The notes under the pieces: generated by a model | What the model saw: the letters and a program-made list of their open reading frames with translations, nothing else | What the model was told of the DNA's origin: nothing | Databases searched by the model: none | Sequence record: MF158044 | DNA from: Shigella phage Sf18 | Length of the DNA stretch: 64,000 nucleotides | Reading direction: 5' to 3' (one strand) | Part shown: positions 26,469-64,000 of the stretch, one piece after another | How positions within the stretch are numbered: the first letter of the stretch is position 1 | Layout: each line of letters begins with the position of its first letter | Translations under genes and position numbers: made by a program

Positions 26469-26532
26469 AGTATTCATCAACGGGGAGGGAGACCTCCCCA
26501 CTAAACAAAATTCCTAAACTGGAGAATCTAGA

Positions 26533-27060
26533 ATGAATAAGTTTAATGCTGTTAATGCAATCCGTAGCCGTGAAGTGATGAGCAAGCCTTGTAAAGATAC
26601 TTGGGAATTTACCTTAAAGAGCAAAGTTTTTGCAGTTATCACAAAAGGGGAAGATAAGCAGTTTTATGTACACCGACCAAATGTAAAAGCGGTAACAGCC
26701 AACAACTTTATGGGGGCTATTTCTCTTATTCTGAATGATTATATGGCTATAGTCGCAGAAATTCACGAAATGGCTATTAAGGCAACTAAAAACGAGTTAA
26801 ACCGCTTTAAAATGGCTTATGAGCGCTCTATTAAGTCCCATAATCTTTTTATTGCAATCCACTATACAGGCATGTATGCTATGGGAACGGGTAACCAACA
26901 ATACCCACTCTATGAAGTGGAAAACATCTTTACAAGTGACTACCCAACAACTAATTTTAAAATTACGTTAGGGGAAGCATTAAATAGGGGAATTAGGCTT
27001 TACGAACAATCTTTAAAAAACTTAGAAAATTCCCTTGACGAAATCATCACAAATCTATAA
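26533..27060 (+). CDS. hypothetical protein (cassette gene)
   Basis: Type-B cassette (GGGGAGGGA-gac-CTCCCC dyad plus leader) upstream. Confidence 0.55.
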   Translation: MNKFNAVNAIRSREVMSKPCKDTWEFTLKSKVFAVITKGEDKQFYVHRPNVKAVTANNFMGAISLILNDYMAIVAEIHEMAIKATKNELNRFKMAYERSIKSHNLFIAIHYTGMYAMGTGNQQYPLYEVENIFTSDYPTTNFKITLGEALNRGIRLYEQSLKNLENSLDEIITNL

Positions 27061-27120
27061 AGTACTTATCAACGGGGAGGGAATGACCTTCCCCAACAAT
27101 CCTAAACTGGAGACTAGAAA

Positions 27121-27384
27121 ATGAATAATCAAGAAATCACTATCCTGTTACAAATCGGTACTGACAAAGAAGATATCCAACTTTGCAAACGTATTGAAAG
27201 TGATTGGTTCAACGGTGAAATCATCGCAGAATCTTATGAAGTAGTCGGATTCATGAATGGTGAAATTGTAAGCCATTTCGGTTTAACTAAATCTGAAGCC
27301 GTTGCAAAGTATGACGTTTTATCTTGTGAGATTCTTACAAAATACAATGAAAAAAGACTTGCAACTTATGCAGCAATGAATTAA
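27121..27384 (+). CDS. hypothetical small protein (cassette gene)
   Basis: Type-B cassette upstream. Confidence 0.5.
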   Translation: MNNQEITILLQIGTDKEDIQLCKRIESDWFNGEIIAESYEVVGFMNGEIVSHFGLTKSEAVAKYDVLSCEILTKYNEKRLATYAAMN

Positions 27385-27449
27385 TATTACTTTCAACGGG
27401 GAGGGAGACTTCCCCACTAACCTAAATTCCTAAACTGGAGAATCTGAAA

Positions 27450-30013: not shown

Positions 30014-30444
30014 ATCTTAAGTTTGAAAGTGTTTTTACCATTGACCTGAATATACCCATCATTTTCAACTATCCAGTGTGCGGTTGAGAATGCACTATAT
30101 GCGTTTGCTTCACCATAACCAAGGAACTTACCATCACACATACTTTCAATATGTATTGTGCCTACTGGTTCACCTGTATCAACGGTTTCTACAATATAGA
30201 GTGTGTTTAGCTTTATGGAACTAGCCTTAGTCTCTTCTTTGAAGCGTTCAGGTAGAGACATATCAAGCCCTTCAGTTATTACAGATTGCATGTAAGCTTC
30301 TGAACACTCCCAGATAAAGCTATGAAGAAGAACCTTTGCAGCATGTCTTGAACAACCAAGGTCTTCGACGATATCTTTATACATATCATCTTTAGTACCG
30401 TTGTTAAGCAAAGCTTTACGCACTACCTCTTTAACATTCTTCAT
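30010..30444 (-). CDS. hypothetical protein
   Basis: Start moved to internal ATG (MKNVKEV) with GAGG RBS; ORF-track start 30495 overlaps upstream gene. Confidence 0.45.
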   Translation of the reverse strand: MKNVKEVVRKALLNNGTKDDMYKDIVEDLGCSRHAAKVLLHSFIWECSEAYMQSVITEGLDMSLPERFKEETKASSIKLNTLYIVETVDTGEPVGTIHIESMCDGKFLGYGEANAYSAFSTAHWIVENDGYIQVNGKNTFKLKM

Positions 30445-30733
30445 CTTTCCAATCCTCATCTCTCTCAATTTGAAACTCATCAGGTAACTCTGCAATAGCT
30501 TTCAAGTAATAAGCTTCTTGAATACTGCAAAGTTCTTCATAACCACCATTCATAAGCCAGTTGTAACCAGCAGGTACACCATTATCATCGCAGAACCCTG
30601 TGTAGAACATTGCTTTATGAATCATGTTAAGTGGCTTGTAAGCAACTTCAACGATGTAGAAAGTGTTATCTTTCCAACCACCCTTTGGAGGATGGATACC
30701 TTTAACACCTCTGGATTGTGGAGTCATAGTCAA
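30431..30733 (-). CDS. hypothetical protein
   Basis: 100 aa ORF; start overlaps upstream stop. Confidence 0.45.
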   Translation of the reverse strand: MTMTPQSRGVKGIHPPKGGWKDNTFYIVEVAYKPLNMIHKAMFYTGFCDDNGVPAGYNWLMNGGYEELCSIQEAYYLKAIAELPDEFQIERDEDWKDEEC

Positions 30734-31173
30734 CCTTTAGAAATTTTTATATCAATGATATTCAAAAGTGCTTGTCTAGATAACTTACCAGATTTTAAGT
30801 ATGGAAGCAATGGTTCTAGTGCATTATCAATCTTAACAGACATTTCTAAGATTTCTTTTGCAATATCTTCTTGAAGGATACTGTATGTGCAAACCCCACT
30901 TACATCTTTCTCATCAAACATTGCAATCTGGATATCAAAAACTTTGTGGTCAGCATGTGCTATGCCTCTGTACAAGAAGTTTTTATCAAACGTGATAATC
31001 TCCCCGCACTTAAATGTCATTCCTTTATCACCTTCACCAATGATGAAATCATTAGTGAGTTCTACTGAGAATGGATAACGGCCTTGTTCAATGTTTCTGA
31101 CTGTACCAAATGCTACACGCTCTCTCGTTGCATAGTTTACAAGCTCTACTACTTCATACTTCTTAAGTTCCAT
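30730..31173 (-). CDS. hypothetical protein
   Basis: 147 aa ORF with GAGGTAG RBS. Confidence 0.5.
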   Translation of the reverse strand: MELKKYEVVELVNYATRERVAFGTVRNIEQGRYPFSVELTNDFIIGEGDKGMTFKCGEIITFDKNFLYRGIAHADHKVFDIQIAMFDEKDVSGVCTYSILQEDIAKEILEMSVKIDNALEPLLPYLKSGKLSRQALLNIIDIKISKG

Positions 31174-31215
31174 TTTCGCTACCTCTAAACAGGGGCTTTT
31201 ACACCCCTTGACAGA

Positions 31216-35074: not shown

Positions 35075-35545
35075 CTATTTTGGATAAACAGCGTCAAGGT
35101 AAATCTTGGCTTCCAAACTACGTCTATTTTGTAGACCCTTGGAAGTTACTTTTTGACCATTCACTGTAATCTTGTTCCACCACTGCATAGCTTCTGCACA
35201 ACCAGCTTTGTTACCAGCATTGTGACGCTTGATAAAAGTTGAATCCTGCATAGCACCGATGCCAATGTTGTAAGTCTCTACAACAAGTGCGTCAAATTCG
35301 TTCTGCGTAGTTGGAACCTTAATTGCTCTGTTTACTGCACCTACATAGTTCTCAACATCTGCAAGGAGATATTGTTCAGCTTGCTCGGCAGTAATCTTCA
35401 TCCCCATCGTAACAGGTCTTCCGTTGATACGAATTGTACCATAACCAATTGTAGGGATTCCAGCAGAGTCTTTATAGGCTTCTAAACGAAGCCCTTCAAA
35501 GAACTTAATGGCTTCTAAGCCTTTACTTGAGAGTTGCATTATCAA
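35075..35545 (-). CDS. endolysin, T4-lysozyme-like muramidase (GH24)
   Basis: Motif EGLRLEAYKDSAGIPTIGYGT matches the catalytic region of T4 lysozyme family. Confidence 0.9.
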   Translation of the reverse strand: MIMQLSSKGLEAIKFFEGLRLEAYKDSAGIPTIGYGTIRINGRPVTMGMKITAEQAEQYLLADVENYVGAVNRAIKVPTTQNEFDALVVETYNIGIGAMQDSTFIKRHNAGNKAGCAEAMQWWNKITVNGQKVTSKGLQNRRSLEAKIYLDAVYPK

Positions 35546-36426
35546 CCTCCTACTGCGTTAATAACCACCTTGGCAGATTGGGATGTGATTGAGCCACCTA
35601 CACCAGTTACAACACAAGAGTAAGTACCTTCATCATCAGCTTTAGAAGTCGGTGTCTTTTCATATGTTGCAGATGTTGCTGAAGGGATATCTACATCATC
35701 TTTCTTCCACTGATAACCAGTTGCACCAGTGGCTACGATGCTAAGGGTGAGTGTATCTCCCTCTGTAATCTCTTGGTTAGTAGGTTGCTGTGTAATCACA
35801 GGCAGTGCATTCACAGTTACTGTGGCAGCGTTGGAATTAACACTTGAGCCACCTTCACCAGAAACTACACAGGTGTATGCGCCAGCATCAGTAGGGACTA
35901 CGCCATTCTTAGTATATGTTGCAGAGGTTGCTCCAGAGATGTTTGATGCACCTTTCTTCCACTGATAACCAGTTGCACCAGTAGCAACAACTGAAAGTGT
36001 AAGTGTTCCACCCTCGTTAACAGTTTGGTCAGTTGGCTGCTGTGTAATAACTGGAGGTGTGATTGCATCCTTCAACTTTGCATTAAGCATGGAGAAAGGT
36101 TTAACCCTTGCCAACCATTCACAATAAACTGTGTCAACATCCTTCCCATTGATGATTGCATACTGCAAGTCCATGAAGAAGTCAGCAGTCCTCATCTGAG
36201 CACCAACTGAATATAAAAGTTCTTCACTAAATGGAACTGTGTAGTCTGGTGTGTAATTGAAGTCAGTAACTTCTGGAATATCAGACTCAGGCCACGGTGA
36301 GCTATATGTCAGAGGCAGAACGGCCTCTTGATACTTTCTGAAGTCGTATCTTTTGCCAGCTTTAACATTCGCTACAAAGTCTTTAACGAACTCTTTAAAA
36401 TCTGGATATGTCTTTGCTTTAATCAT
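35542..36426 (-). CDS. protein with N-terminal domain paralogous to next gene plus two tandem Ig-like domains
   Basis: Two ~85-aa repeats (PVITQQPT...GATGYQWKK...TVN) typical of Ig-like beta-sandwich repeats. Confidence 0.5.
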   Translation of the reverse strand: MIKAKTYPDFKEFVKDFVANVKAGKRYDFRKYQEAVLPLTYSSPWPESDIPEVTDFNYTPDYTVPFSEELLYSVGAQMRTADFFMDLQYAIINGKDVDTVYCEWLARVKPFSMLNAKLKDAITPPVITQQPTDQTVNEGGTLTLSVVATGATGYQWKKGASNISGATSATYTKNGVVPTDAGAYTCVVSGEGGSSVNSNAATVTVNALPVITQQPTNQEITEGDTLTLSIVATGATGYQWKKDDVDIPSATSATYEKTPTSKADDEGTYSCVVTGVGGSITSQSAKVVINAVGG

Positions 36427-36791
36427 TTCTTAGCCTCTAATCTTGCATTTAGTCTAAAATAACCTTTGTGCTGCGGTGAAACATCACCTACAACAACTCC
36501 GTCAATCTTATAGCCTTTACCCATCACATATTGAATATCCATCAAAAATGTACCAAGACCAACGATATGAAACATTGGGTAAAGAAGTTCTTCAGTATCT
36601 GGTAGAGGAATTTTAGGTGTGTATTCGGAATATGTTTCGGTAGGGTTGATATCCTTCTCAGGCCATTTGCTATCACGCCATGTTAAGGGTGTCGGAAGTA
36701 CATCATCAAGATTATACCTGTCACCTTCTTGAACACTTTGGACATAAGATTGTAGGAAGCAATAAAAGTCTTTTCCACTCTTTGCCTTCAT
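36423..36791 (-). CDS. hypothetical protein, paralog of N-terminal domain of 35542-36426
   Basis: Alignable by eye: shared RY, WPE.DI, YTP, ELLY, FFMD.QY, LNA.L positions. Confidence 0.45.
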   Translation of the reverse strand: MKAKSGKDFYCFLQSYVQSVQEGDRYNLDDVLPTPLTWRDSKWPEKDINPTETYSEYTPKIPLPDTEELLYPMFHIVGLGTFLMDIQYVMGKGYKIDGVVVGDVSPQHKGYFRLNARLEAKK

Positions 36792-58937: not shown

Positions 58938-61698
<2,761 letters not shown>

Positions 61699-61699
<1 letters not shown>

Positions 61700-62115
61700 T
61701 GAAAACAGATTTTGCAATCAATCTTGGTGGTGACTACGTAGCTAAATTAGGAAATGATTCTGTATACGTTGCTCACGGAGATTTAAAAATTACGGGTAAT
61801 CAGATTAGAATTATCCCAGAAGACGATAAAGCTACTCAGGTAGCTCAAAGATTACATATTAGGTGTCTTCTAAGGGCTGGAGAGGTATTCTTTAATACAT
61901 CTGCTGGATTCCCTTATTTACAGCTTGCTAAGTTCAAGCAGAAGACCTCTATTTTTGATAATTATATGAAAGGTTACCTTGTTGAAACGAGAGATGTAAC
62001 AAACATCTACAACTACTCTTCAACAATGGATAATGCAATGAGAAAAGTGTCAGTAAGATTTAATGCAACGACAACTGCTGACGATGTTGAAATTAATACA
62101 GAGGTAAACATTTAA
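61699..62115 (+). CDS. small baseplate protein (gpW-like position)
   Basis: 138 aa ORF directly before J-like gene. Confidence 0.4.
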
Positions 62116-64000
62116 TGGCTGGATTAACAACTACAGGTTTACAAACAAAAAGATATCAAGAAATCTTGGATGATGTTAAAGCAAGTCTGTATAGAGATAT
62201 CTCACCAAACCTTGATGTTTCTGAAGATAGCGAACTTGGGTTATTCTTAGCTTCTGTTTGCCGAGGTCTTGCAGACGTTCATGAAATCTTGTCAGAAATC
62301 TATGATGGTGGTACTATTGACAAAGCTGAAGGATTCAGTTTAGATGATGTAACAGCTTTGAATGCTGTATACAGATATGTGGCACAGGCTACAAGAGGTC
62401 AAGCTGAGTTCACTGGTAATTCTGGTGCTTCTGTACCAGCCACTACAAGATTAAGAAGCACAGCAGGTAACATCTTTTACCCTGTGTCAACTTTCACACT
62501 GACTCCATCTTACTGTGTAGAGGCAAACTTAGAAGTTAACTCTTTACGAACAGATGCAAACTATGTTATTATCATTGACAACATTGAGTATTCATATCAG
62601 CCGACTAGTTCTGATACCATTACAACATTGCTACAGAAACTTGCAGATGCTATTAATGGTGGTATTATTGCAAAGGCTGAAGTTACTAATGATGGTTCAG
62701 TTCTGAGAATCTATAAAGACACTGGAGATATCATTGCCAGAACTAACCCTATGGTTGTTACTGCAACGACATTCTTAACATTTACAAAGATTACTTCAAT
62801 CAGTGACGTTGTAGCAGATGAAACTGGAGCTATCCAGACTCTTGCAGGAACCTTGATTGAGATTGAAACAACTGTAGATGGTCTCGATAGTGTTTTCAAC
62901 AGATATGACTTGACAACAGGTCGTGATGAGGAAACTGACACAGAACTGAGACAACGTTACTTAGAATCTCTGGCTGTTACTGGTGTAGGTACTCTAGATG
63001 CTATTGTAGCTGCTGTCAAGAGAGTTCAAGGACCATTACAACATTGCTACAGAAACTTGCAGATGCTATTAATGGTGGTATTATTGCAAAGGCTGAAGTT
63101 ACTAATGATGGTTCAGTTCTGAGAATCTATAAAGACACTGGAGATATCATTGCCAGAACTAACCCTATGGTTGTTACTGCAACGACATTCTTAACATTTA
63201 CAAAGATTACTTCAATCAGTGACGTTGTAGCAGATGAAACTGGAGCTATCCAGACTCTTGCAGGAACCTTGATTGAGATTGAAACAACTGTAGATGGTCT
63301 CGATAGTGTTTTCAACAGATATGACTTGACAACAGGTCGTGATGAGGAAACTGACACAGAACTGAGACAACGTTACTTAGAATCTCTGGCTGTTACTGGT
63401 GTAGGTACTCTAGATGCTATTGTAGCTGCTGTCAAGAGAGTTCAAGGTGTGTCTGATGCTTCTGGTGTAGAAAATGATACTGAGACAACAAACTCTGATG
63501 GTCTTCCTCCGAAGTCTTTTAAGATTGTTGTAGTTGGTGGTCAGAATGATAATATTGCACAGGCAATCTGGGACACGAAACCTGCTGGTATTCGCCCATA
63601 TGGTTCAATCTTTGGGACTGCATATGACTTAGGTTCTCTCCCTCACGACGTTTACTTTAGTAGACCAATGCCTAAATACGTTTTTGTCAAGGTTACTTAC
63701 TCTCTTTACGATGAAGAAACTCTTAACATCCCTGAGCAGGATATTCATGACAGAATTGTTCAAGGTATTAATGCCTACGGTAGAACTTTGAAAGTTGGTA
63801 ACGATGTAATCCCTAACAGAATCTATGGACATATCTATGATGTGATTCAAGGTATCGAGATTAATGAGATTAAGGTTGCACTTTCAAATAACCAAGCAAT
63901 TCCACCTGCTGAGGGGCAGTACACAACCTCAAGAATCACTATTGATGGTGACCAGTACACTGTTTGGGAAAGCTCACAGTATACAATTACCAAGGAGTAA
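62115..64000 (+). pseudogene. baseplate J-like protein gene interrupted by a 416-bp tandem duplication
   Basis: N-terminal frame stops at 63122 after junction; original frame resumes and runs to TAA at 63998-64000; deleting one copy restores ~489-aa ORF. Confidence 0.6.
62616..63447 (+). repeat. perfect tandem direct duplication, 2 x 416 bp
   Basis: 62616-63031 identical by eye to 63032-63447; identical translations in ORF track on both strands. Confidence 0.85.

Follow-up and report, generated by a model that had tools for sequence, protein, structure and literature searches.

The window, a stretch of 64,000 nucleotides from the record of Shigella phage Sf18 (MF158044.1, 90,270 bp as tabulated in PMC13015707), belongs to a Mooglevirus (Ounavirinae), and baseplate genes occupy its 3' end. 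An intact gene for a small wedge subunit (61699..62115, + strand; 138 aa, ATE86408.1) overlaps the start codon of a J-like gene, which is spread over two open reading frames of the same strand. The first of these (62115..63122, +) encodes 335 aa, composed of 306 native and 29 out-of-frame residues, whilst the second (63044..64000, +) begins with a TTG and encodes 318 aa corresponding to native residues 172-489, such that the two ORFs as deposited overlap in residues 172-306. Both exactly match deposited Sf18 proteins, ATE86409.1 (335 aa) and ATE86410.1 (318 aa), the former carrying the product name 'baseplate assembly protein [Shigella phage Sf18]'.

Within this gene, a 416-nt unit at 62616..63031 (+), encoding J-like residues 168-306, is followed directly by a second copy at 63032..63447 (+). 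Direct string comparison, Tandem Repeats Finder and a repeat search agreed that the copies are identical at 416/416 nt, bearing out the exact tandem copy described in a sequence-only reading of this DNA. Tandem Repeats Finder reported one array (62616-63447; period 416, 2.0 copies, 100% matches, 0 indels), and nowhere else does the 64-kb window contain a long perfect repeat; a perfect repeat of this length cannot have arisen by chance. The novel junction at 63031..63032 consists of ...GTTCAAGG on its left and ACCATTAC... on its right. By string comparison the outer borders of the repeat are sharp, with 0 nt of further identity on either side, and microhomology at 63031/63032 amounts to 0 nt, although it is not obligatory for real duplication events. 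The sole short match near the junction is a displaced 5-nt AGTTC, 4 nt off the border, and the earlier statement that flanking microhomology is lacking therefore held at either border.

The consequences for the reading frame are also as previously described: translation of the ORF from ATG 62115 changes frame at 63031/63032 and reaches a stop codon at 63120-63122, whilst the native frame reopens in copy 2 and continues to the TAA at 63998-64000. Removal of one copy from the window sequence generates a 1470-nt ORF of exactly 489 aa, where approximately 489 had been estimated. This collapsed ORF is equal in length to Sf17 gp113 and differs from it by a single nucleotide (P106S). Its product matches Pfam Baseplate_J (PF04865) with 59 bits, against a gathering cut-off of 21.1 bits, over residues 225-431; the duplicated residues 168-306 therefore break the Baseplate_J domain. 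The 335-aa ORF covers merely profile positions 61-147 of 255, and the 318-aa ORF positions 61-252. Residues 1-489 align with residues 1-489 of PDB chain 9ndy_H, 'Wedge protein 2' (E = 6.5e-279), a single 489-aa polypeptide that is ~90% identical to the collapsed ORF. The Sf14 orthologue, gp49, is a wedge subunit like Mu gp47 and P2 gpJ and was detected in virions (PMC11821841). Gene order in Sf17 runs hub, spike, small wedge subunit, J-like wedge, third wedge protein and tail fibres, and the Sf18 gene shares with this family its PF04865 match, its end-to-end alignment to 9ndy_H and, as in Sf14 and Sf17, its position between two other wedge genes. The J-like gene product is therefore a core wedge subunit of the virion. 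What sets the Sf18 gene as deposited apart from the P2 gpJ / Mu gp47 family is its division into 335-aa and 318-aa ORFs, an arrangement seen in no other database member.

Comparison with orthologues, which the sequence-only reading had proposed as a check, returned a single-copy structure in the listed relatives and no related genome with the duplication. Using 61500-64000 as query, 137 records in the phage collection were matched, and among the matches listed (30/30 rows) the span in the record was 416 nt shorter than the matched part of the query; one relative, for example, aligned to the full 2501-nt query over a record span of 2085 nt. With a 300-nt query centred on the junction, all 19 of the 19 records containing both halves gave two pieces spanning exactly 416 nt, and no phage record gave a single-piece alignment over the junction. 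Exact junction 33-41-mers had no match in IMG/VR, JGI metagenomes or GTDB genomes, nor did a 41-mer bearing the window-specific P106S variant, and E. coli complete genomes and a plasmid collection also gave no match. Proteins specific to Sf18 were found in the NCBI record alone, with no Logan or ENA assembly encoding them. At the protein level, the out-of-frame tail was covered by 0/31 homologous protein clusters (drawn from 5.8 billion), the full-length members of which measure 478-498 aa. In Sf17 the 416-nt unit is single-copy at 35505-35920; 63032-64000 aligns to Sf17 35505-36473 at 100%, and from ~43,000 to 63,031, across the structural module, no indels were found relative to Sf17. The duplication is also missing from phages that are 99.3-99.9% identical and were isolated by the same lab. 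A real inactivating or split-gene duplication, one of the two options left by the sequence-only reading, is thus unsupported, as its junction occurs in no relative or independent assembly, and is further opposed by the nature of the gene, which encodes a core virion wedge protein that forms one 489-aa chain in the solved structure. Two further candidates were rejected: a programmed frameshift or natural split gene, since, apart from contig-end or error fragments, every homologue listed is encoded by one ORF of 478-498 aa, and a poor long-read assembly rich in frameshifts, since indels relative to Sf17 are mainly intergenic or in variable regions, with none from ~43 kb to the junction.

The layout of the Sf18 record places the repeat at a particular position. 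The proteins leading up to the J-like gene carry ascending accessions: ATE86399.1 is Sf18_gp125, the sheath, ATE86403.1 is the tape measure protein, ATE86407.1 is the spike and ATE86408.1 is the small wedge subunit. By contrast with this series, the 285-aa protein encoded directly downstream of J is ATE86275.1, and the next two genes encode ATE86276.1 and ATE86277.1, the latter named 'tail fiber protein [Shigella phage Sf18]'. Since ATE86399.1 is gp125, ATE86275.1 is gp1, and the J fragments are gp135 (ATE86409.1) and gp136 (ATE86410.1), the last CDSs of the record. Subtracting the window from the record leaves 26,270 nt, and the distance in Sf17 from the J stop to the equivalent of the window start is 26,273 nt; the window is therefore the last 64,000 nt, and the record ends on the J TAA, which forms the final bases of the window. 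From accession order and length arithmetic, the record exceeds one genome circle by exactly one 416-nt unit, and the duplication site coincides with the record origin/end; it is from these same two sources that we infer the first and last bases of the record. The Sf18 record holds no other redundancy able to serve as its own assembly overlap.

Similarity in length raised the question of whether the 416-nt unit might be the direct terminal repeat (DTR) of the genus. Sf17 bears an exact 427-nt DTR at its record ends, and the Mooglevirus DTR thus resembles the Sf18 unit in size; however, it lies at another locus, whilst the Sf18 unit sits inside the J gene. The DTR homologue maps to 27014..27441 (+), where it occurs once, internally, and aligns to Sf17 1-433, and the final 956 nt of Sf17 correspond to window 26486-27435. 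We therefore rejected the DTR as the identity of the unit, the two loci being 35 kb apart. As the DTR locus is internal and single-copy, the Sf18 record derives from a circular assembly in which the repeat was collapsed, and it was opened elsewhere than at the physical ends of the genome. The Sf18 record is without a second DTR copy.

We examined three sister records that the same lab deposited under neighbouring accession numbers, those of Sf13 (MF158040.1), Sf15 (MF158041.1) and Sf16 (MF158043.1). In both Sf13 and Sf15 the record closes with an exact copy of its opening 248 nt, in Sf13 within a tail chaperone gene; the Sf13 sequence also stands as RefSeq NC_042017.1, at the same length. The Sf16 record is more elaborate, as its end reads X (185 nt), Y (210 nt) and X (185 nt), and its start is Y. 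This is the result expected if the initial 185 nt of a contig with a 395-nt X-Y terminal overlap had been transferred to its other end. X comprises the 3' part of gp133 and finishes on the gp133 stop codon, which thus closes the Sf16 record, and a chimeric 45-aa ORF over the border from Y to X has been annotated as gp134. X-Y is present just once in relatives, including Sf14, which is of the same species as Sf16. In all three sister records an assembly overlap was thus left untrimmed, at an arbitrary position away from the DTR. The 416 nt of Sf18 depart from the 248 nt of Sf13 and Sf15, which tells against a shared error, although the Sf16 overlap measures 395 nt. The moved piece of Sf16 (185 nt) is shorter than its overlap, interleaving the copies across the record ends, whereas the corresponding piece proposed for Sf18 (969 nt) would exceed the 416-nt overlap and make the complete duplication internal.

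These observations point to the Sf18 duplication being, with high probability, a finishing artefact in MF158044.1, in which an untrimmed contig overlap was joined head to tail, and no feature of the phage. Such an overlap was the other option named in the sequence-only reading, and the Sf18 record layout together with the sister records now lends it strong support. Reads from a genome with direct terminal repeats of ~427 nt would assemble as an apparently circular genome, and the assembler would output a linear contig slightly exceeding one genome. In Sf18 the raw contig would have both started and ended inside the J-like gene, with 416 nt shared, its start being ACCATTAC... (now 63032) and its end ...GTTCAAGG (now 63031). 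A 969-nt piece reaching from the start of the contig to the stop codon of J (63032..64000, +) would then have been moved to the end of the sequence, avoiding a split gene. With the overlap left in, two 416-nt copies would come to lie head to tail across an artificial junction at 63031/63032, and gene calling on the joined sequence would yield two 'baseplate assembly protein' CDSs. We infer both the cut-and-paste step and the positions of the raw contig ends, and this relocation would account for the perfect repeat, the lack of microhomology, the record end on the J TAA, the next gene coming first, and a length of one circle plus 416 nt. Perfect copies with 0-nt microhomology are indeed expected of arbitrary contig ends.

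The Phage Annotation Guide warns of contigs exceeding 100% of genome length and of redundancies that become internal (PMC8785237). The Sf18 case resembles the untrimmed overlap of a circularly assembled contig described there in its perfect copies, its arbitrary breakpoints and the lack of the duplication in relatives, as well as in the collapsed, internal terminal repeat and the same class of error in sister records. It differs in that the Sf18 copies lie in tandem inside the record and not at its two ends, presumably because the sequence was re-opened after assembly; Sf16 represents an intermediate form between the end-placed overlap and the internal tandem of Sf18.

Genuine spontaneous tandem duplications do occur in phage genomes, the classical examples being those of T4 rII and lambda, and we therefore weighed whether illegitimate recombination or replication slippage could have fixed a 416-bp tandem duplication in the Sf18 stock. 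The wedge protein would then be split into residues 1-306 with 29 junk residues and a second fragment of ~172-489, the fragments co-assembling for viability. The duplication is present in the deposited sequence with both ORFs annotated, and a genuine repeat could itself make an assembler break there, giving the same raw contig; the T4 rII and lambda duplications are likewise head-to-tail repeats of a few hundred bases with identical copies. Those duplications, however, are viable only without loss of an essential function, whereas the Sf18 repeat frameshifts a core wedge gene inside its Baseplate_J domain and, unlike them, coincides with the record origin. A real duplication would be predicted to inactivate a virion protein that is essential, although the phage is viable and plaque-purified. 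The junction also offers 0 nt of the microhomology that slippage or illegitimate recombination might use, and the duplication is missing from all relatives, including same-lab phages of 99.3-99.9% identity. Furthermore, with 3/3 sister records from the same workflow carrying untrimmed overlaps, Sf18 alone of the four records would be without an assembly overlap, the record end exactly at the J stop codon would be an unexplained coincidence, and the anomaly stands isolated, as the rest of the structural module is without indels relative to Sf17. We consider a fixed duplication very unlikely. Its functional extension, in which the wedge would be made as two overlapping polypeptides (1-306 and ~172-489) acting in trans, is marginally less likely still: the junction does create a Shine-Dalgarno-like AAGGA 11 nt upstream of the in-frame TTG 63044, with a duplex energy of -5.1 kcal/mol that falls inside the neighbouring-gene range (-4.3 to -8.2), but this weak TTG is the only candidate start for the C-terminal fragment, and, together with the domain-breaking frameshift, it would make viability hard to explain.

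Two further explanations move the repeat away from the bulk of the phage population or from the record altogether. Tandem duplications arise spontaneously in phage populations, and a defective minority can persist via co-infection, so that the duplication might be real in minority genomes of the lysate, or in chimeric library molecules, with the assembler threading the loop once too often. We find this barely credible, as it needs a second coincidence, namely a record opening 553 nt further downstream that falls precisely on the stop codon of the disrupted gene, and the recurrent error in the sister records consists of overlaps, not loops. Alternatively, the scanning pipeline might have produced the tandem by wrapping a circular record over untrimmed ends, with no such tandem in the deposited record; the overlaps of Sf13 and Sf15 do sit split between record ends. 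This has virtually no chance of being correct and was rejected given the protein accession order, as ATE86409.1 and ATE86410.1 are consecutive CDSs (gp135, gp136), whilst gp1 is the gene that follows J. The 335-aa ORF, including the tail that the junction creates, has moreover been deposited as a protein, and the junction therefore lies in the record itself.

If the untrimmed overlap is indeed the source, MF158044.1 carries 416 spurious bases along with spurious, truncated ATE86409.1 and ATE86410.1, which have spread into UniRef and nr. Sf18 itself most likely has one uninterrupted wedge gene of 489 aa, as its relatives do and with a sequence identical to the Sf15 gene, so that the repeat would have no biological import. 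Scans of phage genomes for split genes, frameshifts or tandem duplications will keep meeting such cases, for which we propose three filters: a duplication beside the record origin, a record length equal to the genome plus one unit, and sister records in which suffix equals prefix.

Further features were observed in the window and in other records. In Shigella phage vB_SflM_004 (MK295205.1, 85,887 nt) the J-like P0027 is annotated at just 190 aa, and the neighbour of this gene at 132 aa compared with 99 aa, which suggests frameshift errors or a genuine disruption. Within the window, 40075-45003 contains a cluster of 25 tRNA genes (ARAGORN), whilst Sf17 is annotated with 26; 40563-40830 differs from Sf17, with a tRNA-Tyr uncalled in the window, and local indels relative to Sf17 lie at 40777-40830 and 41501-41564. 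The segments 30018-30289 and 30729-31182 gave no megablast match to Sf17, whilst their flanks are 94-98% identical, representing a local mosaic replacement in a region of small minus-strand genes. Between 20500 and 27500, an intergenic repeat family of ~50-90 nt has 7-10 occurrences, one just upstream of each small gene. Laid out as AAAGTGCTTTACATGGGG...hairpin...CCCCAGATAAAGAGCTTTACC...CCTAAACTGGAGAATCTAAAATG, they resemble an early-region cassette of promoter, terminator and RBS; the region homologous to this part of the window is also where the contig ends of Sf15 and Sf16 are located. Finally, the minus-strand gene at 35655-36059, a homologue of Sf17 gp018 ('tail protein, immunoglobulin-like domain'), contains two 153-nt copies that are 75% identical and 252 nt apart, which probably correspond to Ig-like domains in tandem within the Hoc-like decoration protein reported from Sf14.
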